Below are positions 255 through 32,497 of a DNA stretch of 55,764 nt, piece by piece. This DNA comes from a virus, in the IMG/VR virus record IMGVR_UViG_3300033402_000018. The stretch is one strand, 5' to 3'. Positions within the stretch are counted from its first letter, which is position 1. The number at the start of each line of letters is the position of its first letter. Both the position numbers and the translations under genes were made by a program. Under the pieces are notes generated by a model that had not been told where the DNA came from, did no database searches, and saw only the letters and a list, made by a program, of their open reading frames with translations.

Positions 255-584
255 ATGGCAAAGGCACAACTGAAGCGAACACCGTACATCACCCTGATCT
301 GCGCACCCGGAATCCCAACATCTGAACTCAAGGCGCTGAAAGCACACTGGCAAGAAGCCGAGCGCGACCCCAACTACTCCGTTGTGGTAAACTATGAATG
401 TGTCGTTTCGCTGATCGAGACACCCAAGGACACCAAGTTTGTGATCGTGGCTCCCGGCGTTCCGACAAGCGAGGTCACGGCGCTGAAGAAACAGTTTCGT
501 CAGGCGAAACGTGCGAAGAAGCAAGAAGATCGCATTGTCGTTGTAAATTACGAAGTGAGGATCGACGGTATCGGCTGGTACTGA
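255..584 (+). CDS. hypothetical protein built from two tandem ~40-aa repeats
   Basis: 109-aa ORF; aa 15-51 (ICAPGIPTSELKALK..VVVNYECVV) recur at aa 63-102 (IVAPGVPTSEVTALK..VVVNYEVRI). Confidence 0.6.
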   Translation: MAKAQLKRTPYITLICAPGIPTSELKALKAHWQEAERDPNYSVVVNYECVVSLIETPKDTKFVIVAPGVPTSEVTALKKQFRQAKRAKKQEDRIVVVNYEVRIDGIGWY

Positions 585-856
585 TGAGAAAGTTTTTCAA
601 GAAAAAGAAATACTCGTGGGAAGGCGTTAAGCACGCGATCCCGATTGACCAAGACATCTGGGATCACACCCAGCAATACGTCAAGGATCAGATCGCGATC
701 ATGAAACGCCACGGTTCGGAGCCTGACCCGCCGCTGACTGAGGCGCAGTTCCAAGACCTCGTGTATGTGACGGCACGGTATCCGCAGCAAGTGAGAAATC
801 TTCGAAAGAAGTACGAGGCACCAGAAGATGCGACTTTGCGGGCCAACGCAGTATAA
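584..856 (+). CDS. hypothetical protein
   Basis: internal ATG of ORF 398..856 sitting on a TGATG junction with the upstream stop; 90 aa; no motif. Confidence 0.5.
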   Translation: MRKFFKKKKYSWEGVKHAIPIDQDIWDHTQQYVKDQIAIMKRHGSEPDPPLTEAQFQDLVYVTARYPQQVRNLRKKYEAPEDATLRANAV

Positions 857-1457
857 CCGATTGCTTTCAGCGATCAAGTATTACGAGCAGTGCGGTTTCA
901 AATACATTGATGTGCCATGGACTGTCAGTGAAGAAGCCATGAACATTACGCGTCCGGCGTGGGCTGGTACGAATACGCTTATCTACACCGCTGGCGGCAA
1001 GCAGCATTGCCCCGTTGCTTCAGCCGAGCAATCATTTCTTCAAATGCAGTTGGACGCGCTTGATGGAAGTCTTGACAACCGAATTTCTGGCAGCTTTTGC
1101 ACACTAACACCATGCTTTCGCAATGAGCCTGTCATTGACGATCTTCACCAGCCGTATTTCATGAAGGTGGAGCTTATCAGTTGGGATAAGACAACCCGCG
1201 AAGACATGGACAAAATGATCGCTGGGGCGCGGTTATTTTTCGAAGAGCATCTTTGGATTGATTGTGTCTACAATACGGAGCCTGATCCTATCGGTGTTGT
1301 TGCCTATGATTTGGTGACCACGCACACAGGGATCGAGCTAGGGAGCTATGGCATTCGTGAGCATCCGAGAGTCGGACGCTGGGTTTACGGCACCGGATTA
1401 GCCGAACCGCGTTTTAGTCTCGCGCTTGAAAAAGAGCCGCAAAGTGAGACGGTATAA
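828..1457 (+). CDS. seryl-tRNA-synthetase-like class II aaRS catalytic core, truncated (no tRNA-binding arm)
   Basis: class II motif 1 GFKYIDVPWTV, motif 2 TPCFRNEP..HQPYFMKVEL (cf. SerRS TPCFRSE..HQFxKVE), motif 3 GTGLAEPR; only 209 aa. Confidence 0.55.
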   Translation: MRLCGPTQYNRLLSAIKYYEQCGFKYIDVPWTVSEEAMNITRPAWAGTNTLIYTAGGKQHCPVASAEQSFLQMQLDALDGSLDNRISGSFCTLTPCFRNEPVIDDLHQPYFMKVELISWDKTTREDMDKMIAGARLFFEEHLWIDCVYNTEPDPIGVVAYDLVTTHTGIELGSYGIREHPRVGRWVYGTGLAEPRFSLALEKEPQSETV

Positions 1458-1479: not shown

Positions 1480-2190
1480 ATGGCTTGGTTTGACCAAATC
1501 TCGATGTCGCAAATTAGCCACAGACTGTTTGTCAGTGGTTACGCTCCTGCCGCTGAGTTGGCAAAGGAAAATCCTCATAAAATCACTGCCGTTCTCTGTG
1601 TCCATCAAGTCATGGACTACGACCAGAACCCCAACATCATCTACATGCACGTGCCATTTGACGACGGATCACCCATCCCGCCGCGTCAGTTTGTAAAGTG
1701 CCTTGGTTGGTTGAAGTTCATGTGGGAGAACGGGCACACAATTCTTGTCCATTGCGCCGCTGGCATCTCGCGATCAGTCACGATCATGGCGTCGTTCATG
1801 CACTACGAAGGCATTTGCGATTTTGAAACAGCACTTGACCGAATCCGCATGGCCCGTCCGGTCGCATCTCCTGCCGCAGCCGTATCGAACTCCGCAAAGC
1901 AGATGCTTGGCGTATATCCTTACGATGGCTCAATGGTGCCGGAGCATGAACGCACCATGCACGAACTTATCGAACGCGTGCAGAATCAACGCGCCGCACA
2001 TGCGCACCCGGATGAGAACTGCCCGATGCGCCAGTTTTTACTAGGCGATCAAGAAGACAACAGACCGCGCTACGAAATCCCATGCACCTGCGAGAAGCTG
2101 CTGAATCCAATAGAGTACGCGCAGCAGAAAGAAAAAAATATCATCGTTGTTGCTGATCCCGGCATCATACTAACAGATGACGAGGGGTGA
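1480..2190 (+). CDS. dual-specificity (Cys-based) protein phosphatase
   Basis: P-loop VHCAAGISRS = HCX5R(S/T) signature; 236 aa. Confidence 0.8.
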   Translation: MAWFDQISMSQISHRLFVSGYAPAAELAKENPHKITAVLCVHQVMDYDQNPNIIYMHVPFDDGSPIPPRQFVKCLGWLKFMWENGHTILVHCAAGISRSVTIMASFMHYEGICDFETALDRIRMARPVASPAAAVSNSAKQMLGVYPYDGSMVPEHERTMHELIERVQNQRAAHAHPDENCPMRQFLLGDQEDNRPRYEIPCTCEKLLNPIEYAQQKEKNIIVVADPGIILTDDEG

Positions 2191-2819
2191 GTATGGAGCG
2201 GGTCTTAAACGATGCCTTGGAGCTTGAAGGGATTGCCCAAGGGCACCAAGACGACATCCGTGCCTACCTCAAAATCCTGCGCAACCGGGATCAGTCAACC
2301 TACGAGCATTCCATTCGAGTAGGGATACTCGCCAGTAAGATTGCCATCTATGCCGCCAAGCCGGGGGTTAGCGCACGCATGATGCTGTGGGCTGGCTTCC
2401 TGCATGACATCGGCAAGGTGCTGGTGCCGCCCGGAGTTCTTACTAAGAAATCTCACTTTACCGCTGACGATTACGCCGCGATGGAGCCGCACGTCAAGTA
2501 CGGCTGGGACATGCTCACCGAAGTTCACGATTACACCGCACACATCCTCGTCCGGCATCACCAGTATGGCTCCAAGCCCTACCCTAAAGAACTGCCAGCG
2601 CTGCCGGAGCACCTACAGGCTCGCGCTGAAGTGGTGGACAATGCCGCACGCCTATTGGCGCTCGCGGACTACTACGATGCTCTCATGCACCGGAACAACG
2701 ACAAAAACGGTGCGAAGCCGCTATCCGGCAAAGAGAAGCGGGAAATCTACATGCGGGACAACGCCGATCAGAAAGACCTGATCGAGCTTCTTGAGTCCGT
2801 GGGTGTGCTAAAATTCTAG
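2187..2819 (+). CDS. HD-GYP-family phosphohydrolase with degenerate GYP
   Basis: HSIRVG..LHDIGKVLVP..HHQYGSKPYP..ADYYDAL follows the HD / HDxGK / HHExDGxGYP / DxxDA layout; GTGA overlap with upstream stop. Confidence 0.7.
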   Translation: MSMERVLNDALELEGIAQGHQDDIRAYLKILRNRDQSTYEHSIRVGILASKIAIYAAKPGVSARMMLWAGFLHDIGKVLVPPGVLTKKSHFTADDYAAMEPHVKYGWDMLTEVHDYTAHILVRHHQYGSKPYPKELPALPEHLQARAEVVDNAARLLALADYYDALMHRNNDKNGAKPLSGKEKREIYMRDNADQKDLIELLESVGVLKF

Positions 2820-2826
2820 TAGACTC

Positions 2827-3384
2827 ATGAAAATCAAAGACTTAAAGCTACACGCTTTCTGGAAACGGTTTTTCCGCCGCCTTAGTAGGGGATTGGGCGT
2901 GCCGAAGAAGATTGCAGCGACAGAGGTAAAAGCACCGGGAAAATACGAAGCTGGTAAGCGGTACACCATCTTTCTCGCCGGAGCCATCGACCAAGGTAAA
3001 GCGGTGGACTGGCAGCAGAAAGTCGCCCGCGCTCTGGACGAACTGGACATTCTGATCCTGAATCCGCGCAGAGAGAATTGGGACCCAAGCTGGGATCAAT
3101 CCGCAGACAATCCTGAATTCAGGCAGCAGGTAAATTGGGAACTTGACGCACAGGCGGCCGCTGATATGGTGATTTTCGTGTTCACCAAGGACAGCAAGGC
3201 ACCGATCACGTTCTTGGAATTCGGTCTGTTCGCCCCAACCAAAGACGCCGTGGTCTGCGCTGAAGAAGGCTTCTACCGCAAGGGAAATCTTGACATCGTA
3301 GCTGAGCGCTACCACATTCCAATGTATGACAATTTGGATGAGATGATCGGTGACTTGAAGACGGTGCTTGGGGAGAAAGCATGA
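2827..3384 (+). CDS. nucleoside 2-deoxyribosyltransferase-like protein
   Basis: IFLAGAID..LNPRRENW..WELDAQAAADMVIFVF..PITFLEFG pattern typical of the NDT-like family. Confidence 0.6.
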   Translation: MKIKDLKLHAFWKRFFRRLSRGLGVPKKIAATEVKAPGKYEAGKRYTIFLAGAIDQGKAVDWQQKVARALDELDILILNPRRENWDPSWDQSADNPEFRQQVNWELDAQAAADMVIFVFTKDSKAPITFLEFGLFAPTKDAVVCAEEGFYRKGNLDIVAERYHIPMYDNLDEMIGDLKTVLGEKA

Positions 3385-3722: not shown

Positions 3723-4046
3723 ATGGTCACATTGACACCCGGAGCGGTAAAGAAAGTCAAGGAAATCATGGAGCAGCAAGACCCGAAGCCAGCCGCACTG
3801 CGTCTTGGCGTTATTGGCGGCGGATGCTCCGGCTTTCAGTATTCTATGCAGTTCGAGAATGAGAAGGGCATGATGGACAAGTCCTTCGAGTTCGACGGTC
3901 TTACGTTGATCGTTGACGCTACATCGTACATGTATCTCGACGGCTGCGAAGTTGATTACCTTGAGACGCTCGAAGCCAGCGGCTTCAAGTTCAACAACCC
4001 GAACGTGAAAAGCACCTGTGGGTGCGGTCAGAGCTTCAACGCATGA
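3723..4046 (+). CDS. A-type Fe-S cluster carrier (IscA/ErpA/HesB family)
   Basis: GGGCSGFQY and C-terminal CGCGQSF three-Cys signature; 107 aa. Confidence 0.9.
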   Translation: MVTLTPGAVKKVKEIMEQQDPKPAALRLGVIGGGCSGFQYSMQFENEKGMMDKSFEFDGLTLIVDATSYMYLDGCEVDYLETLEASGFKFNNPNVKSTCGCGQSFNA

Positions 4047-4219: not shown

Positions 4220-4552
4220 ACCCAAGCCGAAGAGAGACGGTGGTAAGTCGGAACCGTCTTCGCGGCACGTTCCGCGACGATCCACCGAACTACGACAAGC
4301 CGATCTATGACCGTGATGGTAACCAGATCGGTGTGATTTATGATGCGCCTCCCGCGCCGGGGCCGAGCGGATTATCATGATTTGTTGCTCAATTTGTAAA
4401 GAAATGGTCGTATCTAGTGTTGAAGACCTCCGTTTGAGCGAAACGTTGGTCAGGATACAAGACCACTACAAGACGCATTCTTGGCTGCGACGTAAGCTTC
4501 ACAGGCTACAAACGTTGCCAGCGACATTGCGGCTGAAGAGATTTCAAAAAAC

Positions 4553-4969
4553 ATGTACTCTGAAAAAGTAATCGACCACTACAACAACCCGCGTAATGTT
4601 GGCTCGCTGGACAAAGCATCGCCAGACGTGGGGACAGGTCTGGTTGGTGCGCCGGAGTGCGGCGACGTAATGAAGCTTCAGATCAAGGTGGAAAACAATG
4701 TCATTGTTGACGCTAAGTTCAAAACTTTTGGCTGCGGCAGTGCTATTGCTTCTAGCTCGCTCGCGACTGAATGGGTTAAAGGCAAGACAACTGATGAAGC
4801 CCTCGCCATTAAAAACACCGAGATCGTCAAAGAACTCGCCCTCCCACCTGTAAAGATTCACTGTTCAGTGCTCGCCGAAGACGCGATTCGCGCCGCGATT
4901 GCTGACTGGAAAAAGAAGCAAGATGCCGAAAAAGCCAAAGAAGAAAAAGCCCATCACGAAGCGCGATAA
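4553..4969 (+). CDS. iscU: Fe-S cluster assembly scaffold IscU
   Basis: YSEKVIDHYNNPRNVG..GAPECGDVMKL..FKTFGCGSAIASSS..LPPVKIHCSVLAEDA; canonical Cys/Asp ligand set. Confidence 0.92.
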   Translation: MYSEKVIDHYNNPRNVGSLDKASPDVGTGLVGAPECGDVMKLQIKVENNVIVDAKFKTFGCGSAIASSSLATEWVKGKTTDEALAIKNTEIVKELALPPVKIHCSVLAEDAIRAAIADWKKKQDAEKAKEEKAHHEAR

Positions 4970-5524: not shown

Positions 5525-6106
5525 GTGGGCATGAGTCAATATGATCGTGTCTACCTAGACCAATGCTACGCACTCGCCAAGAACAGCACATGTGTGAAGG
5601 CCAAAGTTGGCGCTCAAGTGCGCGGACCCTACGGCGACATGTCTGACCACCTGCTAGGTCAAGGTTTTAACCAATCCCCCAATCCTGAGTTTGCTGACTG
5701 CGGCAAGCTGTGCGCCGGGGGCATCCGCTGCGGCATTAAGTCCGGTACTCGCGCTGAACTCTGTTACGCCGTCCACGCGGAGCAATACGCACTACTTCAG
5801 GCCGGATCGCTCGCGAAAGGGGCCACGATCTATGTCGCTTCCTACGATGACAAAGGCGAGAAACGCCTGAAGAACGCTGAACTCCCGCTGGGGCACCCGA
5901 TGCACGGTTTCTACTGTTCGGTGTGTGCTAGGCTCATCTGGGCTGCGGGAATCGCACGTGTAGTGACGGACGGTGTAAAGGGCCCGGTTGTTCTCAGCCT
6001 GAATGACATCTGGAAGACCTCTTACGGCGTGGCGGACAGTATTGACAAGAAGTACAAATCCTGCGGTTGCGAAGTAGGCAATTGCATCTGTGATATTGAG
6101 ACCTAA
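5525..6106 (+). CDS. cytidine/deoxycytidylate deaminase-fold protein (divergent)
   Basis: HAEQYALLQ catalytic motif and distal YCSVCARLI CxxC pair; GTG 5525 or ATG 5531 start. Confidence 0.7.
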   Translation: MGMSQYDRVYLDQCYALAKNSTCVKAKVGAQVRGPYGDMSDHLLGQGFNQSPNPEFADCGKLCAGGIRCGIKSGTRAELCYAVHAEQYALLQAGSLAKGATIYVASYDDKGEKRLKNAELPLGHPMHGFYCSVCARLIWAAGIARVVTDGVKGPVVLSLNDIWKTSYGVADSIDKKYKSCGCEVGNCICDIET

Positions 6107-6639
6107 TGTCAAACCTCGCTGAACTCAAAGACCTGCCCAAAGAGCGGAAGAAGTATGTCGTTGGCTTCTTGATTGATCCCACGTTGTCTAAGGTGGTGCT
6201 CGTGCGTAAGAACCGACCTGACTATCAACGCGGTCTGCTCAACGGCGTGGGCGGGAAAGTCGGAGACACGATCCTAGACGAAACCACGGAAGAGGCGATG
6301 GCCCGTGAGTTCCAAGAAGAGACGGGTGGGGTTGATCTCAACTGGCGGCGGTTCTTGCACATGATGACACCCCGGTCAGACCTGACATTTTTCTACGCCA
6401 TCGGCAATGTTCACTGTGTCCGAACACAGACCGACGAAGAAGTAGCGGTGTATGACATTTCCGATGTGATGGATCGCTGCGATACGATGCCCAATGTTCG
6501 CTGGTGCATTCAGATGGCACGCTCTATTGAGTTCGGTGAGCACGCGGATTACTTTGAAGTGGCTGAGATTTTGGAGACAGACTTACCAGCGAATTTTCAT
6601 TTCATCCCGGATGCAGCGCTTGAAAAAGAAGACCTATGA
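6106..6639 (+). CDS. Nudix hydrolase
   Basis: Nudix box GDTILDETTEEAMAREFQEETGG fits GX5EX7REUXEEXGU. Confidence 0.85.
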   Translation: MSNLAELKDLPKERKKYVVGFLIDPTLSKVVLVRKNRPDYQRGLLNGVGGKVGDTILDETTEEAMAREFQEETGGVDLNWRRFLHMMTPRSDLTFFYAIGNVHCVRTQTDEEVAVYDISDVMDRCDTMPNVRWCIQMARSIEFGEHADYFEVAEILETDLPANFHFIPDAALEKEDL

Positions 6640-7574
6640 ACATTGAATCGAAACTGATACTTGCCAGCAAGAGCGAAGCAACAGGCATCACCCTTTACAC
6701 GTTTGTGCTCACGTACCCACGTGTCATCCTAGCTGAAGTAAACACGCATCGAATGCTCAGCCGCAACACCGCGTCATCTCGCGCTATTCCAGCCAAGAAA
6801 CAGCGGGAACGCGTGCTTACTGATCCGTTCGTGCCTGTCACAATTGGGGCGAATCAGAAAGGGATGCAGGCTGGTGAAGAGCTTGACGGCTGGCGTCGGT
6901 TTGTTGCGATCAACACGTGGAAACTTGCACGCTACCCAATGGTAGCGGCGTCGTGGGTACTCGACAAGGTTGGTGCGCACAAGCAAGTTGTGAACCGCAT
7001 TGTGGAGCCGTGGACGTTCACGCAGCAAGTTGTGACTTGCACCGACCTGAAGAATGTCTTCAAACTGCGCAACCACAAAGATGCAGAGCCACACTTTCAA
7101 ATCATCGCGAAACAGATGCAGATGCAAGCAGAGTGGGCCGAGAAATGGTTTAACACCCTTTCGTGGAACTCGGAGAACGCGCTTGACCGTAGATTAGAAA
7201 TCAACAACCAACTTGGTGTTGGTACTCTTCAGGTGCTAAAGCCGGGGGAGTGGCACATGCCGTTTGTTGATGAGAAGGACATCACAGACACAATCCTGAA
7301 CTCCATGCTGCATGACAGCACTGACGAATCCCTGAAGAAAATCAGCACAGCACGCTGCGCACGTGTCAGCTACTTTCTACCGGAGAGCGGCAAAAGGTCT
7401 GACCCTAAGCGTGACGTAGAGCTTTGCAATAAACTGTCCGGCTCCGGTCATTGGAGTCCGTTCGAGCACGTAGCCACGCCGACAAAAGAAGCGGATTACA
7501 TTGGCAATTTTAAGGGCTGGAAGCAGTATCGTAAAGAGTATCCGCAAGAGTCTGGAGGGGACCGTGGGAATTGA
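6636..7574 (+). CDS. thyX: flavin-dependent thymidylate synthase ThyX
   Basis: ThyX motif NTHRMLSRNTASSRA (RHRxxSxxxxSxR); 312 aa; ATGA overlap with Nudix stop. Confidence 0.92.
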   Translation: MNIESKLILASKSEATGITLYTFVLTYPRVILAEVNTHRMLSRNTASSRAIPAKKQRERVLTDPFVPVTIGANQKGMQAGEELDGWRRFVAINTWKLARYPMVAASWVLDKVGAHKQVVNRIVEPWTFTQQVVTCTDLKNVFKLRNHKDAEPHFQIIAKQMQMQAEWAEKWFNTLSWNSENALDRRLEINNQLGVGTLQVLKPGEWHMPFVDEKDITDTILNSMLHDSTDESLKKISTARCARVSYFLPESGKRSDPKRDVELCNKLSGSGHWSPFEHVATPTKEADYIGNFKGWKQYRKEYPQESGGDRGN

Positions 7575-7608
7575 AGGCTGGGGCAGATCATTTGGGGCGA
7601 TTCAAGCG

Positions 7609-8094
7609 ATGGAGAAACGCCTTGCGAAGCAGCGCGAGTGGGACATCTACTACCTGAACATGGCCCGTTACGTCTCCACGAAGTCGAAGGACCCAAGCAC
7701 GCAAACCGGAGCGTGCATCGTGCGCCCGGACAACTCTTTGTGTTCCATTGGCTTCAACGGCTTCCCCAAAGGCATGAATGACGCCCCGGAGCTTTACGCC
7801 AACCGTGATGTAAAGTATTCTCGCACAGTGCATTGCGAAGTCAATGCCGAAATCTTCACCAGAGAAGACCTGAAGGGGTTTACGCTTTACACGTGGCCTT
7901 TCTCATCTTGCGACCGTTGCGCGGTGACGATGATTCAGGCGGGAATTGCACGTTTTGTGTTTCCAACCATGCCGCCAGAGAAGGCGTCCCGTTGGGCTGA
8001 AAACATGGCGATAGCGCAAGGCTACATGCGGGAAGCTGGGCGGGAAGTGGTTGAGATACCGTATGAACAGATTCCCAAGGTTGTGCTAGAATAA
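7609..8094 (+). CDS. dCMP deaminase
   Basis: YYLNMA..SKDPSTQTGACIV..VHCEVNAE..SCDRCAVTMIQAGI (HxE + CxxC); start ambiguous (7501, GTG 7564 or ATG 7609). Confidence 0.85.
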   Translation: MEKRLAKQREWDIYYLNMARYVSTKSKDPSTQTGACIVRPDNSLCSIGFNGFPKGMNDAPELYANRDVKYSRTVHCEVNAEIFTREDLKGFTLYTWPFSSCDRCAVTMIQAGIARFVFPTMPPEKASRWAENMAIAQGYMREAGREVVEIPYEQIPKVVLE

Positions 8095-22274: not shown

Positions 22275-24353
22275 ATGACTAACAAAGAACTGGTGCAGAT
22301 GTTCAACGCCGATCTGGAAGCAGCGCGGGACGCCTACTACAAGAAGGCGGAACCGATCATGACCGACGCGGAATATGACGCTATGGAAAAGAGTCTCCGC
22401 AATCTCATTACCGTGTTTCCGGGACTCGCCGAGTTCGCACCTGTCCTGAAGACGGTCGGCTCTGACCTTACGTCCAGTGGGCGCATCAAACACGCTGTCC
22501 CGATGCTCAGCATCGAAAACCAGTACACTGAAGAGGATTTCACTGGTCAGTATGACAAGTGGGGCGCGAACATGCCTGTTGTGCTGGAGCCGAAGTTTGA
22601 CGGCATCAGCGTCTCCATCCTGTATCTCAACGGCGTGCTTGAACGGGCGCTGACTCGCGGCGACGGCACGTCCGGCGAGAACATCACCGCAGCGGTTAAA
22701 GCGGTCAAATCCATCCCCCAGACTCTTCCGATAGATGTGTTCACCAGCCAATGCGAGATTCGCGGTGAGCTTGTGATGGCAAACGCCACACTCGAACGCA
22801 TCAACCGGGAAGCGGCGGCGATAGGCGGTAAGCAGTATTCCAGCACGCGCAACTTGACTGCCGGAACGATGAAGCAGCGTGACATGGACATCGTTGCCAG
22901 TCGAGACATTTTGCTCATGCCGTGGGATGTGCTTAGTGTCAGCGCTTGGAAAGATGGCAAGCAGTTATTGCCGGACAGCCGTTACGAGCGCTTGCTTCTA
23001 CTGAGCGAACACGGCTTTGAAGAGCCAAAGGGTATTCGTTGCTTCCTTCGGGATGCGATCATCCCGGCGCTTCACATTCTCCTGAAGCACAACAAAGAGC
23101 GTGCAGTTAATTGTGACGGCGTTGTCATGAAGGTAGATAGTGTGACCGCGTGCAAAGAGCTTGGCAACGGCTCCAAATACACGAACTGGCAGACCTGCTT
23201 CAAACCACAGTCTGCGTCCGGCACTACATACTTGCGTGAGATTCAATGGCAAGTGGGGCGCACGGGCGTCATCAGTCCGGTTGCGAAATGTGACGTGGTT
23301 GTCTTGGCTAGTGCTAACGTCACCAGTGCCAGCTTGAACAACATCACGTTCATCCGCAAGATGGGCCTGAAGCTGGGCGCGAAAGTTGAAATGCTGCGCT
23401 CCGGCGATGTCATCCCGCAGATCGTGCGCGTCATTGATGACGGTGACGAAGAGATCAACCCTCCAACTCACTGTCCTGAATGCAACAGTCTGACGGAGTT
23501 GCGGGACGAAGGCGGGCAAGGCATTATCCAGTGCTTCTGCACCAGCCCGTTCTGCCCCGCACAGATCATAGGCTACCTTTCGTTCGTCGGCAGTCGTGAC
23601 GTTCTGGAGATCGACGGTCTGGGGCCGGAAATGGCGCGTAAGCTGGTCGAAGGTGAGTTCACTCGCGATCTTGCTGAGCTTTATGAATTTCAGCAGGACA
23701 TGATGAACATCCTCACGAAATTTGACGAGGAAACACTGATTCGCGGCGGACGCAAAAAAGGCTTTGACGCCACTCTTCCGAAGATGGTTCGGTCATTGGA
23801 GAAGGCGAAAACCGCGCCGTGGGAACGCTGGATCAAAGCGCTTGGCATTCCGATGATTGGCGAGACGCTGGGCAAGGTGGTCGCGTCTACTCTCGATCTT
23901 CAGGAAAAGAGCATGGCTACGCTGGATGTTGACCTGATCCTTTTTGCCGGGAAAGAAGTAGACGGGTTCGGTGAAGCCAAGATGAGCGCGATCCGAAGCT
24001 GGGCGGAACGAAACGGTGAACTCTGCCGGAAGCTCTACGGACTTGGTATTCGTCCTACTCCGATGGAAAAGGTGGTGGTCGCCGAAGGCGCACCACTGAA
24101 AGGTGTCGTCTTCTGCATCACCGGGGAGTTCAGCGAAGACCGCGATGCCCTGACGAAGAAGCTGGTTGCGCTTGGCGCGGAAGCGAAGTCCGGTGTCACT
24201 AAGAAAATCAACCTCTTAATCGTCGGGGAGAGCGCCGGAAAAACAAAATTGACCAAAGCCAAGGAACTTGGCATCAAACAGGTAGGCAAAGAGTGGCTGG
24301 AACAGGCGCTTGGCGGACTTAAGCCTGATACCTTCGCCGCTGAGAGGGCGTAA
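22275..24353 (+). CDS. ligA: NAD-dependent DNA ligase LigA
   Basis: adenylation motif EPKFDGISV (KxDG), Zn finger CPECNS..C..C, HhH region, C-terminal BRCT (GVVFCITGEF); 692 aa. Confidence 0.93.
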   Translation: MTNKELVQMFNADLEAARDAYYKKAEPIMTDAEYDAMEKSLRNLITVFPGLAEFAPVLKTVGSDLTSSGRIKHAVPMLSIENQYTEEDFTGQYDKWGANMPVVLEPKFDGISVSILYLNGVLERALTRGDGTSGENITAAVKAVKSIPQTLPIDVFTSQCEIRGELVMANATLERINREAAAIGGKQYSSTRNLTAGTMKQRDMDIVASRDILLMPWDVLSVSAWKDGKQLLPDSRYERLLLLSEHGFEEPKGIRCFLRDAIIPALHILLKHNKERAVNCDGVVMKVDSVTACKELGNGSKYTNWQTCFKPQSASGTTYLREIQWQVGRTGVISPVAKCDVVVLASANVTSASLNNITFIRKMGLKLGAKVEMLRSGDVIPQIVRVIDDGDEEINPPTHCPECNSLTELRDEGGQGIIQCFCTSPFCPAQIIGYLSFVGSRDVLEIDGLGPEMARKLVEGEFTRDLAELYEFQQDMMNILTKFDEETLIRGGRKKGFDATLPKMVRSLEKAKTAPWERWIKALGIPMIGETLGKVVASTLDLQEKSMATLDVDLILFAGKEVDGFGEAKMSAIRSWAERNGELCRKLYGLGIRPTPMEKVVVAEGAPLKGVVFCITGEFSEDRDALTKKLVALGAEAKSGVTKKINLLIVGESAGKTKLTKAKELGIKQVGKEWLEQALGGLKPDTFAAERA

Positions 24354-27506: not shown

Positions 27507-29327
27507 ATGCACATCAAACCGCAAGCAAAGATCGCTCTGGTAGTTGTTCTGGTTCTGGGCGTAGTCTTCGGACTCCGCACCGCCGCAGAGCATGGATTGA
27601 TCCCAACCCCCGGCATCATGAAGGCGTTGGTGCCTCAGAAGGCTGTCCTGCCTGATGTAAAGGATGCTCAAGTTCAGAACGTCGCCCCTGTAGCCCTCCC
27701 GCAAGACTCCCCGGCTAACGTTCAAGCCACGCCGATTCGTGGCGCGATCTGGGAATGGAACGCTCAGATGGGCATGATCTTCGCCAACGGCGGCGCAACC
27801 ACGACCGCTGGTTCGTTGATGGCGAAGCGCAACGTCAACCTGATTCTGTATCGTCAGGACGACACCAGCAAGATGCAAGAAGACCTGATCGCTTGCGCCA
27901 AGGAACTGCATGACGGCAATCCGTCTTGCTCGAACGGTGCAAACTTCGTGGTCATCATGGGAGACGGCGCTGGTCAGTTTGCCGCCGCAGTCAACCCGCA
28001 GCTTGCTAAGCTGGGCCCGCAATATCTCGTGAAGGTCATCGCCGCCACTGGTTACAGCCGTGGTGAAGATGCTTTCATGGCTCCCCCGGACGTGAAGAAG
28101 AGTCCCGCCGCTGCGAAGGGACTTCTGGTTGAAGGCGTGCTCCGCGATGGCGACTGGAATATTGCCATGAAGTGGGCTGCTGACAACAACATCCCCAACA
28201 ACCCGGACGAGAAGACCTACGACGCCAACGCTCTCAACTGGATTAACGCGCCGGACTACAATACCGCCGCGTCTGATTACGTTGCTGGCAAGTGCGAAGA
28301 CCGCAAGGTCGTAAAAGACGGTCACCCGACTGGCGAAACGAAGCACGTCTGCGTCAATGCGGTCGTGACTTGGACTCCCGGCGACGTGACGGCTGCTACT
28401 CAAAAGGGCGGCTTGGTCAAGGTGGTTTCGTCCAAGCAGTACCGTTCGCAGATGCCCGCTGTGGTCCTTGGCCCCGGCAAGTTCTTCGCCGACAATCGTG
28501 ACGAAGTAACCAACATGATCGCTGCCATCTTTGAAGGTGGAGATCAGGTTAAGGCGTTTGACACGTCTCTGCGCAAGGCTGCGGTCATTTCGACCAAGGT
28601 CTACAATGACGAAGGCGATCAGACTTCGCACAACGGCGATTTCTGGTATCGCTACTTCAAGGGCGTCCCGTACAAGGATCAGACCACGGGCGCGACTGTT
28701 GAGCTTGGCGGCTCCGCAGTGAACAACCTTGATGACAACCTCATCCTGTTCGGCTTGAAGCCCGGAACCAACGACAACTTCCGCAGCACCTACACGGTGT
28801 TTGCCAACATCGACGTTCAACAGTATCCGCAGTTGTTCAAAGAGACGCCGATTCCAGACGTGAAGTTGGTCGAAGACAAGTCTTACATCACCGGAGCACA
28901 GGCTGTTCTGTCCGGCGAAGGTGACACTGGTTCTGAAGCCAGCGCTCCGGCTTACGAGCAGGAAGCCAGCGGCGAGACCGTTTCCAGCCGCTCGTACAAC
29001 ATCAACTTCCAAACGGGAAGTGGGCAGCTTACGCCGCAAGGCGAACAGCAGCTTCGCGATCTGAAAGATGGTCTGGCAATCACCGGACTGTTCATTCAGG
29101 TGGACGGATACACCGACAACACTGGCTCTGATAGCGTTAACATCCCGCTGTCTCAGGCTCGTGCGGAGTCCGTGCGCAACTTCCTGCAACGCAACTATCC
29201 CGGCAACTTCCCGAACAAACGGTTCGCGGTCGCCGGACATGGTTCGCAGAACCCAATCGCGTCGAACGCCACGGCGGACGGTAAAGCTCAGAACCGCCGC
29301 GTGACGATCACGTTGAAAGGCAACTAA
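27507..29327 (+). CDS. periplasmic substrate-binding-like domain fused to OmpA-family peptidoglycan-binding domain
   Basis: N-terminal TM/signal (IALVVVLVLGVVFGL). C-terminus FQTGSGQLTPQGEQQL..VDGYTDNTGSDSVNIPLSQARAESV..GHGSQNPIASNATADGKAQNRRVTI is a classic OmpA_C motif. The central ~400 aa look SBP-like, next to ABC genes. Confidence 0.75.
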   Translation: MHIKPQAKIALVVVLVLGVVFGLRTAAEHGLIPTPGIMKALVPQKAVLPDVKDAQVQNVAPVALPQDSPANVQATPIRGAIWEWNAQMGMIFANGGATTTAGSLMAKRNVNLILYRQDDTSKMQEDLIACAKELHDGNPSCSNGANFVVIMGDGAGQFAAAVNPQLAKLGPQYLVKVIAATGYSRGEDAFMAPPDVKKSPAAAKGLLVEGVLRDGDWNIAMKWAADNNIPNNPDEKTYDANALNWINAPDYNTAASDYVAGKCEDRKVVKDGHPTGETKHVCVNAVVTWTPGDVTAATQKGGLVKVVSSKQYRSQMPAVVLGPGKFFADNRDEVTNMIAAIFEGGDQVKAFDTSLRKAAVISTKVYNDEGDQTSHNGDFWYRYFKGVPYKDQTTGATVELGGSAVNNLDDNLILFGLKPGTNDNFRSTYTVFANIDVQQYPQLFKETPIPDVKLVEDKSYITGAQAVLSGEGDTGSEASAPAYEQEASGETVSSRSYNINFQTGSGQLTPQGEQQLRDLKDGLAITGLFIQVDGYTDNTGSDSVNIPLSQARAESVRNFLQRNYPGNFPNKRFAVAGHGSQNPIASNATADGKAQNRRVTITLKGN

Positions 29328-29405: not shown

Positions 29406-29621
29406 ATGAGACCGAAACCAGCAGACGTTGAATTGAAGATCGCTGAGAGTGTCGGCTGGTACATTGACGTAACTAACGAAGAGAAGTGGCTGGTGCGTGA
29501 CGGCGGCGTGAATCAATGGGTCGGCCCCGGCGCAGCTACGGACGCGGAACTGAAATTGTGGGTTCTGCTGCTGACCAAGATTGTGACGAAAGAAGCCAAG
29601 GAATTTTTGGAGAGCCTGTAA
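29406..29621 (+). CDS. hypothetical protein
   Basis: 71-aa ORF right after terminator and GCATCTAAG motif. Confidence 0.5.
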   Translation: MRPKPADVELKIAESVGWYIDVTNEEKWLVRDGGVNQWVGPGAATDAELKLWVLLLTKIVTKEAKEFLESL

Positions 29622-30406
29622 TGAGTGAGTTCATTTCCGCTTACACACCGAACAAACCCACCAAGGTATCCACGGTCAAGATGCTGATCGCTAGCTATGC
29701 CGCGTTCTTCTTCGTGTTCTGGTTCTTCTCGCCGTTCCCGTTCCTGCCTTCAATCGGTGAAACATGGGCAGCGTGGGTTGAGCAGTGGGGGCAAGGCTTA
29801 GGCGGGGAACTCATTACTAGCTTCGAAGCCAACTTGCAAGCTATCGCTCTTTCTTCTCTCATCTCGCTGGGACTTGCCTATTTGACAGTGCTCGCCGGAT
29901 TCCGTCCAATCGTCACGTTCCTGTCCAAGCTACGCTTCCTTTCAATGGTCGGCTTGAGCTTTTTCTTCACGGTTGCCACGAAGACACAGCACCAACTCAA
30001 GATCAGCTTGTTGGTGTTCAGCATCAGTGTGTTCTTCGTGACCGGGATGGCTGACGTGATCGAGTCAATTCCGAAAGAACAGTATGATCTTGCACGCACG
30101 CTGCGCATGGGGCCGTGGCGCACCGTCTGGGAAGTAGTAGTGCTGGGTCAAATTGACAAGGCGTTTGATGTGCTGCGCCAGAACGCCGCCATCGGATGGA
30201 TGATGCTTACGATGATTGAAAGCATGGTTCGTTCCGAAGGCGGCATTGGCGCTATGCTCACCACCGCGAACAAACACTTTTACCTTAACGCAGTCTTTGC
30301 CATCCAGATCACCATTCTGTTGATGGGGTTGGGGCAGGACTACTTGATCGGCGCATCGAAGAAGCTCTTCTGTCCGTATGCCGCGCTGGGATCGGAGCGC
30401 AAGTGA
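29621..30406 (+). CDS. ABC transporter permease (NitT/TauT-type binding-protein-dependent family)
   Basis: ATG 29621 (TAATG). About 6 TM helices. EAA-like loop ESIPKEQYDLARTLRMGPWRTVWEVVVLGQI. Confidence 0.8.
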   Translation: MSEFISAYTPNKPTKVSTVKMLIASYAAFFFVFWFFSPFPFLPSIGETWAAWVEQWGQGLGGELITSFEANLQAIALSSLISLGLAYLTVLAGFRPIVTFLSKLRFLSMVGLSFFFTVATKTQHQLKISLLVFSISVFFVTGMADVIESIPKEQYDLARTLRMGPWRTVWEVVVLGQIDKAFDVLRQNAAIGWMMLTMIESMVRSEGGIGAMLTTANKHFYLNAVFAIQITILLMGLGQDYLIGASKKLFCPYAALGSERK

Positions 30407-31448: not shown

Positions 31449-31622
31449 ATGAATGCCGCGATCAAAGAAGTTATCGAGAAGCACGTCTGGGCGTATGGGC
31501 CTAACCGCAAAGGCTGCGTTATGTTCATGACGGATGGCGTCAGGGAAGTAGCCAACGAACTTGAAATCAGCTATCGGGCGGCGGAAGAGCTTGTCCGATG
31601 CTGGATTGGGGAGACATTCTAA
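31449..31622 (+). CDS. hypothetical protein
   Basis: ATG 31449, 57 aa, frame of ORF 31383..31622. Confidence 0.4.
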   Translation: MNAAIKEVIEKHVWAYGPNRKGCVMFMTDGVREVANELEISYRAAEELVRCWIGETF

Positions 31623-32497
31623 TGGCGGCACTTTATCCATACACCTACGGGCCTACGCTTCTTAAAATCGACAACGTTTGCCTATCGGCGTCGTCTGACG
31701 GTCTGCGGTTGCTCGAACACGAAGAACCGGGGAGCCGCCCCATTCTGAAGAACGTGAGCGCCGAAATCAAGAAGATCGACCGTGTTGGATACGTTAACGG
31801 TCAGATCGTAGGATTCATCGGCCCGTCTGGTATCGGCAAAACACAGCTTTTCCGCATCATTGCCGGACTCAACAAGCCAACATCAGGTTCCGTCACGATC
31901 AATGGCGGCAAAGTGGTGCAGGCAGGTGAAGTAGGCGTCGTGGCGCAGAATTACCCGCTCTTTGCGCATCGCACGGTCATGAGTAACCTCATGCTCGCCG
32001 CCAAACAGAAAGAGAAAGACCCCAAAGTAGCGCATGACAAAATCATGACGTTCTTGAACGAATTCAAGCTGGCGGACAAGGCCCCATTGTATCCGGCGCA
32101 GTTATCAGGTGGGCAGAAGCAGCGCATCGCCATCATTCAGCAAATCCTGTGCTCAGAGCATTTCCTGCTCATGGATGAGCCTTTCTCCGGCTTGGACATC
32201 ATCGTAGAAGGCAAATGCACTGAGTTGATCTTGAAGGTTGCCAACATGGACGGCTTGAACACCGTGATCGTAGTCACGCATGACATTTCAGCCGCCGCAG
32301 CCATCGCCGATCACATCTGGGCATTGGGGCGTGAGCATGATGCTGAAGGCAACCCGCTCCCCGGCGCGAGTATTGTGAAGACCTACGACCTGATAAACGA
32401 AGGTCTGTGCTGGACACAGTTGGGTGAACACGCGATGGTTCAACCAAACATGGTTGAGTTCATCCGCCAAGTCAAGGAAGATTTCTACAAGTTCTAA
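31622..32497 (+). CDS. ABC transporter ATP-binding protein (NitT/TauT-like)
   Basis: Walker A GPSGIGKT, signature LSGGQKQR, Walker B LLMDEPFSGLD, H-loop VVTHD; TAATG junction. Confidence 0.88.
   Translation: MAALYPYTYGPTLLKIDNVCLSASSDGLRLLEHEEPGSRPILKNVSAEIKKIDRVGYVNGQIVGFIGPSGIGKTQLFRIIAGLNKPTSGSVTINGGKVVQAGEVGVVAQNYPLFAHRTVMSNLMLAAKQKEKDPKVAHDKIMTFLNEFKLADKAPLYPAQLSGGQKQRIAIIQQILCSEHFLLMDEPFSGLDIIVEGKCTELILKVANMDGLNTVIVVTHDISAAAAIADHIWALGREHDAEGNPLPGASIVKTYDLINEGLCWTQLGEHAMVQPNMVEFIRQVKEDFYKF

Follow-up and report, generated by a model that had tools for sequence, protein, structure and literature searches.

Paralogues of aminoacyl-tRNA synthetases have repeatedly given unexpected chemistry, e.g. 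lysylation of EF-P, loading of carrier proteins and synthesis of asparagine. For seryl-tRNA synthetase (SerRS), a 2022 review of such paralogues lists just SerRS2, SLIMP and the amino acid:[carrier protein] ligases Bll0957, Bll6282 and Atu2573 (Mocibob et al. 2010), the last three being SerRS-like paralogues; none of those listed comes from phages (PMC9437257). In this study, a gene located at positions 828-1457 of a viral DNA stretch of 55,764 nt (IMG/VR virus record IMGVR_UViG_3300033402_000018; the whole stretch is referred to as the window) was analyzed together with its relatives in other phages. Its product (here called the core) is very probably a serine-adenylating enzyme that works with a small protein encoded nearby (here called the partner). 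In a first, sequence-only reading of the window, the product had been taken for a minimal class II core of the SerRS type that stands alone and has no arm for binding tRNA, and this description was borne out by profile searches, fold comparison and alignment with hhalign.

The SerRS-like core and its family

The open reading frame (ORF) carries the three class II motifs in the order previously described, and all of the strings quoted at that time were found (Table 1). In the Joint Genome Institute (JGI) gene call for the same genome, translation begins at a TTG codon at position 861, i.e. 33 nt downstream of the ATG, which gives a product of 198 aa (P0001). The ATG at position 828 is preferred, because the N-terminal residues M-R-L-V-G-P-x-Q-Y-x-R-L-L (the first 11 residues included) match homologues in the alignment and a GAGG sequence is present 9 nt upstream. 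An identical protein is encoded by L081, a JGI contig that overlaps the window and reaches 5.1 kb further left.

A search of a 90%-identity database of 5.8 billion clusters gave 1,264 homologues of the core (E<=1e-3), while an exhaustive HMMER scan gave 1,571 representatives at 50% identity, including 1,382 below 1e-10. The query matched PHROG 4806 over its full length (E=5.1e-40; residues 9-203 on positions 7-187 of the 190-position profile). Judged by these sequence matches, the gene belongs to a real family, far above chance. With tblastn, the core was found in 276 deposited phage genomes, named (by the first word of the organism name) mostly after Escherichia (112 records), Acinetobacter (61) and Caulobacter (13); further names refer to Brevundimonas, Pectobacterium, Cronobacter, Microcystis and Campylobacter hosts and to uncultured huge phages. 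The nearest relatives (53–59% identity) are encoded on viral contigs of 170–463 kb, two of which exceed 450 kb (L003-L005). Among the genomes of 185,579 bacterial and archaeal species (one genome from each), just 18 core loci were identified, namely 17 contigs of metagenome-assembled genomes (MAGs) and one 775-bp contig of an isolate, and there was no evidence of a cellular version of the core in this set. The core and its partner are essentially restricted to phages.

Single-sequence searches with the query against Pfam, NCBIfam and the PDB gave only sub-threshold class II matches (0.26–0.28 in Pfam) and nothing meaningful in the PDB; the Pfam family tRNA-synt_2b was not matched by the query, and was matched weakly by 5 of 40 family members. 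For this reason, a profile of the family (A1) was built from 40 members. When this was compared with the PDB, all top 18 matches were SerRSs (best E=1.8e-6), and hhalign placed the profile on residues 167–319 of E. coli SerRS with a probability of 89%. An AlphaFold2 model of the core (predicted local distance difference test, pLDDT, 93.9; predicted template modelling score 0.89) was used as a Foldseek query, and SerRS was ranked first, with histidyl-tRNA synthetase (HisRS) and HisZ as the second-best folds. The best matches are thus class II synthetases, specifically SerRS, and not biotin/lipoate ligases. Taken together, the profile and the model indicate that the core is a minimal class II synthetase catalytic domain descended from type-1 SerRS. 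Its fold is nearer to this type than to the zinc-type (methanogen-type) enzymes, and the Cys-Glu-Cys zinc site is absent. It is not a member of the serS family as curated, since the arm, the motif-2 loop and the model cut-offs all fail; the NCBIfam model TIGR00414 gave 10.7 bits against an equivalog cut-off of 301.65.

The gene itself is not new, since it is already deposited (core in PHROG 4806, partner in PHROG 6408), and GenBank records give it inconsistent names, i.e. 'histidyl' or 'seryl' tRNA synthetase, or hypothetical protein. PHROG 4806 is labelled 'histidyl tRNA synthetase'. A histidyl identity was considered and rejected, as the top sequence matches are SerRSs and both the motifs and the ligand-contact residues are of the SerRS and not the HisRS type. 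The label is probably erroneous, with HisRS being a second-best assignment.

In E. coli SerRS bound to a seryl-adenylate analogue, the seryl moiety is contacted by T237, E239, R268, E291 and S391, the adenine is stacked on F287, and R397 is the conserved motif-3 arginine (bioRxiv 10.1101/586255). By hhalign and local alignment, T237, E239, R268, E291, S391, F287 and R397 correspond to S65, E67, R98, E115, T189, F111 and R195 of the core, which are conserved in 260, 260, 260, 260, 258, 260 and 258 of 260 diverse family members, respectively (all conservation counts given here refer to this set). Two of these replacements (T237 by S65 and S391 by T189) are conservative swaps. In the counterpart of the serine-binding 'TxE' motif, SAE of the core is set by hhalign on TAE of E. 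coli. Motif 1 is aligned with 'HGYSENYVPYLV' of E. coli SerRS, and its G23 and P30 are conserved in 244 and 249 members. Motif 2 is composed of two strings, TPCFRNEP (residues 94–101) and HQPYFMKVEL (residues 107–116), and between its halves there is a shortened, acidic loop of 10 residues; the motif includes E100 and, as ligand-binding residues, R98 (the ATP arginine), F111 (stacking on adenine) and E115 (contact to serine). The SerRS-like wording of motifs 2 and 3 noticed at first sight agrees with their local alignments to the E. coli enzyme, and the ATP-binding arginines expected of such an enzyme are present as R98 and R195. Residues E170 and S173 are proposed as equivalents of SerRS E355 and S358, as the E-x-x-S pattern also occurs in E. 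coli 'EISSCS'; E170, G172 and S173 are invariant (260/260). Since all seryl-adenylate contacts of the E. coli enzyme have counterparts conserved in at least 258 members, the core keeps a complete and strongly selected seryl-adenylate site, essentially without exception across the family.

The elements of SerRS that recognize tRNA are missing or altered. According to hhalign, the core chain begins at the counterpart of SerRS residue ~167, at the start of the motif-1 helix of the catalytic domain; the N-terminal antiparallel coiled-coil tRNA arm is absent, and the whole chain is accounted for by the catalytic core. In SerRS this arm reaches over the dimer to hold the variable arm of tRNA-Ser, and the motif-2 loop contacts the acceptor stem (PMC6316282). 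The motif-2 loop of the core family has 9–11 residues (16 in E. coli SerRS) and carries a net negative charge in 200 of the 260 members, compared with +2 in E. coli. The core proteins are acidic (median pI, i.e. isoelectric point, 5.17), as are the partner proteins (median pI ~5.3). Canonical recognition of tRNA-Ser is therefore disfavoured, because the arm is absent, the loop is short and acidic, and the core itself is acidic.

Partner gene and protein

Clustering of ORFs over 78 related viral loci revealed a small ORF beside the core gene and on the same strand, which was then traced with a hidden Markov model (HMM) of its ~80-aa product. The partner was found in 77 of the 78 viral loci, in 15 of the 18 loci from the cellular set and in all three cultured phages examined. 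In 96 of 100 core-seeded loci it is on the same strand as the core, either upstream (61) or downstream (35), with a median domain-to-domain gap of 20 nt and 7 nt, respectively. When loci were instead seeded with the partner, the core was present on the strand of the partner and at most 4 kb away in 75 of 78. In-frame fusions of the two occur in five of the 100 loci, and in eleven further database representatives the core is N-terminal and the partner C-terminal, which gives at least 16 fusions in total. The core and the partner are thus a near-obligate pair. In the rv5-like Escherichia phage UPEC06, the partner forms the C-terminal domain of a protein of 167 aa, and in Acinetobacter phage DP45 it forms the N-terminal domain of a protein of 207 aa with the annotation 'MazG-like'; in the third cultured phage, Caulobacter phage CcrColossus, it is a separate gene product, gp132, next to the core gp133.

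An HMM search of the window did not reveal the partner, because it sits beyond the left edge, on contig L081 (positions 4395-4658). This corresponds to 425–688 nt to the left of the first base of the window and to 1.25 kb upstream of the core. In this lineage of huge phages, lineage-specific small genes are placed between the partner and the core. One of these, a 90-aa gene at 584-856, was also called in L081 (5666-5938), and in L003 and L004 the corresponding place is taken by homologues of 65–71% identity; it had no Pfam or PHROG match.

The partner family corresponds to PHROG 6408 (E 1e-28 to 1e-43), which is annotated as 'unknown function', and some members carry the JGI label 'phosphoribosyl-ATP pyrophosphohydrolase'. 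The Pfam family PRA-PH (HisE) was matched by 30 of 36 partner members (best E=2.3e-5) and MazG by 3; a comparison of the partner profile with the PDB was only weakly suggestive. Six invariant residues (E21, E22, E25, D28, E41 and D44) form the ExxE...ExxD metal-binding signature of all-alpha nucleoside triphosphate (NTP) pyrophosphohydrolases, and there are also family-specific invariants (Y3, H4, I8, G11, G14, K18, Q32, T70, F74, G77 and R79). An AlphaFold2 model (pLDDT 93.9) has three helices and a conserved yet unstructured N-terminal stretch of 15 residues. The partner is probably a relative of the HisE/MazG-like NTP pyrophosphohydrolases, as predicted from these matches.

Two other identities of the partner were rejected. 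It is not a carrier protein, since this three-helix protein has an invariant acidic motif and matches PRA-PH and MazG and not carrier families; it also lacks a phosphopantetheine-type serine motif, as members may have C, A or T in place of the S of ELSD. Neither is it a split-off tRNA arm of SerRS, as its invariants are acidic residues of the metal-binding type and its pI is low. A metagenomic protein of 154 aa (P0121), about double the usual length, was the top match in the partner search (160 bits), so that the HisE/MazG-like domain may be duplicated in tandem here, similar to the two-domain MazG of E. coli.

Proposed function and alternative explanations

The explanation that we prefer, to which we would give a little less than an even chance, is that a seryl-AMP-making core and a HisE/MazG-like subunit act together on a non-tRNA, nucleotide-type acceptor. 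The core would condense serine and ATP into enzyme-bound seryl-AMP. Physically bound to the HisE/MazG-like subunit, it would then have as its substrate a compound of the nucleotide type that bears polyphosphate, and would not serve tRNA-Ser in the canonical manner. Two routes with chemical precedents would fit. In one of them, AMP would be passed from seryl-AMP to an NTP or to a 5'-triphosphate end, yielding products of the Ap4N type or caps, with serine acting catalytically and being recycled. In the other, the seryl group would be transferred to a nucleotide, and the partner would either bind the acceptor or pull the reaction by irreversible cleavage between the alpha and beta phosphates, in parallel with the action of HisE on the product of HisG (the ATP-phosphoribosyltransferase step). 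Class II synthetases, SerRS among them, are known to make Ap4N and caps from the aminoacyl-adenylate in a side reaction. Diadenosine tetraphosphate (Ap4A) and pyrophosphate are among the reactants listed for a SerRS kinetic assay (bioRxiv 10.1101/586255). The sequence-only reading had proposed activation of serine for a non-canonical acceptor, which is consistent with all of the data, the acceptor being a matter of deduction.

Several points weigh against this explanation. We infer from conserved residues, neighbouring genes and fusions that the adenylate and the complex are formed, and the nucleotide-type acceptor is deduced from the partner family and the loss of the tRNA-recognition elements. 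The assignment of the partner is only moderately strong, as most of its PRA-PH matches are near or under the gathering score, and hhalign of the partner profile with the single E. coli sequences of HisI and MazG gave no match. An enzyme of the MazG type releases pyrophosphate, which alone would drive adenylate formation backwards, so the logic of the coupling is not obvious. Furthermore, in several lineages (L007, L008, L016 and others) the pair is located inside or beside arrays of tRNA genes, in rV5-like phages an RNA-repair-type nucleotidyltransferase (RlaP) is encoded two genes upstream of it, and in CcrColossus gp133 (L085, 2737-3591) the core is preceded by an N-terminal helix-hairpin-helix domain of the RNA polymerase alpha C-terminal (alpha-CTD) type (PF03118, E=2.6e-7). 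The tRNA arrays, the RlaP neighbour and the alpha-CTD fusion keep an RNA substrate possible.

These last observations would fit a non-canonical tRNA seryl-transferase, in which the core would charge the 3' end of tRNA (tRNA-Ser of the host or of the phage, or any tRNA) and so boost or re-route serine decoding in infection. Binding of the tRNA would then be the task of the partner, of an additional domain or of host SerRS joined to the core as a heterodimer. The seryl-adenylate site is intact, the dimer motif (motif 1) is kept, the alpha-CTD domain in CcrColossus is of a nucleic-acid-binding kind, and the family occurs in large, tRNA-rich phages; a tRNA gene lies within 10 kb of the core in 17 of 60 related loci, in three of which tRNA arrays adjoin the core-partner pair to the left and to the right, and the window itself contains four tRNA-Ser genes. 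As evidence for a specific link, these positions were rejected, since by rough estimate, made without a formal background, they are near the level that any gene picked at random would show in a large phage with many tRNAs. No tRNA was found within 10 kb in the other 43 loci, tRNA-Ser was present in just 6 of the 60, and the arrays near the pair are not Ser-specific. The tRNA-Ser genes reported in the sequence-only reading are real and ~34 kb downstream of the core, and its suggestion that the core modulates this set found no specific support. The core also has no domain for binding the variable arm, and its acceptor-stem loop is six residues shorter and acidic, in combination with a partner that is acidic as well. 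Borel and colleagues (1994) reportedly found that arm-less E. coli SerRS activates serine normally and loses most of its tRNA charging and specificity. Where synthetase activity is needed by huge phages or giant viruses, it is, as far as is known, supplied by full-length enzymes that they encode. We therefore regard a tRNA seryl-transferase as rather improbable.

Two further explanations leave tRNA aside, and each has only a slim chance of being correct. A ligase that modifies proteins, in the manner of EpmA/PoxA or of the carrier-protein ligases, would attach serine to a protein side chain or prosthetic group, with the 80-aa partner as a conceivable acceptor, e.g. at its invariant K18. The arrangement of a synthetase-like core beside a protein of ~80 aa recalls the amino acid:[carrier protein] ligases, residues Y3 and H4 are invariant in the partner as well, and natural fusions are compatible with self-modification; we nevertheless judge this very unlikely, as the ExxE...ExxD signature and the PRA-PH/MazG similarity are typical of an enzyme, the phosphopantetheine-type serine is missing, and the single conserved cysteine of the core leaves no Cys-Glu-Cys zinc site. 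A non-catalytic regulator, similar to HisZ or SLIMP, is at least as doubtful. Such a pseudo-enzyme would sense serine or ATP, or would poison or retarget host SerRS by heterodimerization, and the HisE-like partner would imply a role akin to the histidine pathway. The 'histidyl' labels in PHROG and GenBank and HisE as the best Pfam match of the partner point in this direction, and HisZ and SLIMP are precedents of catalytically dead paralogues (PMC9437257). HisZ, in contrast to the core with its adenylation residues conserved in 258–260 of 260 members, has no adenylation activity (PMC9437257), and the top sequence matches of the core are all SerRSs and none HisRS. HisG was not among the top neighbour families examined (not every family was annotated), and no family other than the partner exceeded 17 of 77 loci. 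Escherichia phages account for 112 of the 276 records, and E. coli has the long form of HisG and no HisZ.

Extending the preferred explanation, the pair may constitute an unrecognized class of phage enzymes, using seryl-adenylate chemistry on nucleotides or on 5'/3' ends of RNA (e.g. making or editing Ap4N, caps or seryl-nucleotides). The phage would in this way manipulate signalling in the host, the stability of RNA or immunity. At ~180–210 aa, the core may at the same time be the most compact class II core in nature that is complete for catalysis. We consider this somewhat unlikely as a whole.

Genomic surroundings and comparison with known systems

No conserved neighbour other than the partner was found above 17 of the 77 loci, the maximum being DUF4326. 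The remaining neighbours are lineage-specific and include dCMP deaminase, NADAR, ThyA, ligase, ribonucleotide reductase and RlaP. PTH2-like and 2H-phosphoesterase-like neighbours, which would suit a tRNA seryl-transferase as RlaP would, were recognized in some lineages by eye only, and Pfam did not confirm them. Among extended variants of the core or the partner (P0317 of 443 aa, the UPEC06 and DP45 proteins, L011 and others), the alpha-CTD of CcrColossus gp133 was the only recognizable extra domain; its presence accounts for the alternative GenBank annotation of gp133. In L053, a transfer-messenger RNA (tmRNA) gene (1580-1987, tag peptide AKLTRLQNVDFSFNMNNVEIEFNAVAA) and a suppressor-type tRNA with a CUA anticodon are located within 10 kb of the core-partner pair, and another tRNA with a CUA anticodon is present in L007.

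Within the window, the core is directly followed by a run of nucleotide-metabolism and phosphatase genes, in which Nudix was also matched weakly and ThyX faintly (Table 1). The tRNA block consists exclusively of tRNAs with a long variable arm (type II), which is an unusual, class-restricted set for a phage. A protein resembling the Major Vault Protein is unexpected in phage DNA.

Table 1. Features of the 55,764-nt window, including the sequence motifs of the core (residue numbers refer to the core protein).
Feature	Position (nt)	Strand	Residues and remarks
Lineage-specific gene immediately upstream of the core	584-856	+	90 aa; overlaps the core start by 29 nt
SerRS-like class II catalytic core gene (PHROG 4806)	828-1457	+	209 aa; ATG start
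Motif 1, GFKYIDVPWTV	894-926	+	23–33; class II dimer-interface motif, signature proline P30
VASAEQS	1014-1034	+	63–69; counterpart of the SerRS serine-binding 'TxE' motif
Motif 2, TPCFRNE...HQPYFMKVEL	1107-1175	+	94–116; local alignment to E. coli TPCFRSE...HQFDKVEM
ELGSYGIR	1335-1358	+	170–177; putative Mg2+/adenylate-site strand, pattern match only (no alignment tool)
Motif 3, GTGLAEPR	1389-1412	+	188–195; local alignment to E. coli GSGLAVGR
Dual-specificity phosphatase, HD-domain protein, nucleoside 2-deoxyribosyltransferase-like protein, two dCMP-deaminase-like proteins	1480-3384, 5525-8094	+	
IscA-like iron-sulphur assembly protein	3723-4046	+	PF01521, E=9e-22
IscU/NifU-like iron-sulphur assembly protein	4553-4969	+	PF01592, E=8e-53
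NAD-dependent (LigA-type) DNA ligase	22275-24353	+	full-length; OB, zinc-finger and BRCT domains
Protein with C-terminal OmpA domain	27507-29327	+	606 aa
ATP-binding cassette (ABC) transporter permease-like protein and ABC ATPase	29516-30406 and 31598-32497	+	
tRNA block	35639-36311		tRNA-Ser GCU, CGA, GGA, UGA (35639-36213), then tRNA-Leu(UAA)
Major Vault Protein-like protein	50013-52460	+	815 aa; vault shoulder (PF11978, E=3e-26) and vault repeat (PF17795, E=5.5e-11)

Full-text searches of the literature retrieved annotation labels only, with no functional description of the family and no published account of the two-gene module, which is also not mentioned in the jumbo-phage survey of Iyer et al. 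(PMC7824862). What appears to be undescribed so far is the combination of a SerRS-derived minimal core, predicted to be competent in seryl-adenylate formation, with a near-obligate HisE/MazG-like pairing. The family is widespread and tractable, as the phages carrying it include easily handled rV5-like coliphages and Acinetobacter phages, and the near-obligate pairing and fusion define a two-protein system as a starting point for biochemistry. With a complete adenylate site in ~200 residues, the core would be a natural test case for the minimal size of a functional class II core, a question approached so far mostly with engineered 'urzymes'. Candidates for its biological purpose are host takeover and the metabolism of nucleotide signals or RNA ends. 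The results also support re-annotation of the PHROG 4806 family in databases, as its current names are inconsistent and probably wrong.

Compared with type-1 SerRS, the form of bacteria, eukaryotes and most archaea, the core has the same class II fold, motifs 1–3, a TxE-type motif, the Arg/Glu/Phe/Glu residues of motif 2 and the Ser(Thr)/Arg residues of motif 3. It is, as had been noticed at the outset, too short for a canonical SerRS, its 209 aa contrasting with ~330 aa in the catalytic domain and 430 aa in the whole E. coli enzyme. The segment from E170 to motif 3 has 25 residues, compared with 42 in E. coli, 10 acidic loop residues are present instead of 16 basic ones, the coiled-coil arm is absent, and the core is almost always accompanied by a HisE/MazG-like partner.

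The amino acid:[carrier protein] ligases are likewise SerRS-related class II cores devoid of a tRNA-binding domain and encoded beside a gene for a protein of ~80 aa, and they act on a non-tRNA acceptor, as may the phage core. The analogy with these ligases drawn in the sequence-only reading fails in two respects, i.e. the fold of the phage core is of type 1 and not of the zinc type, and its neighbour is HisE/MazG-like, whereas theirs is a phosphopantetheinylated carrier protein. With HisZ and HisRS, the core has in common a class IIa core without an anticodon-binding domain and a C-terminal half as compact as that of HisRS, and the best Pfam match of the partner is the PRA-PH (HisE) family, HisE belonging like HisZ to histidine biosynthesis. 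It differs from HisZ in its invariant adenylation residues, and linkage to HisG was not seen among the neighbour families examined.

The last comparison concerns LysU/LysRS (lysyl-tRNA synthetase) and SerRS as synthases of Ap4A and Np4 caps, in which the aminoacyl-adenylate donates AMP to a nucleoside polyphosphate and the amino acid is recycled; for the phage core, such a reaction is a hypothesis only. We know of no full-length synthetase that requires a MazG/HisE-like subunit for the synthesis of Ap4A or Np4 caps. This side activity of class II synthetases does not need a tRNA-binding domain, and it keeps the amino-acid pocket under selection.

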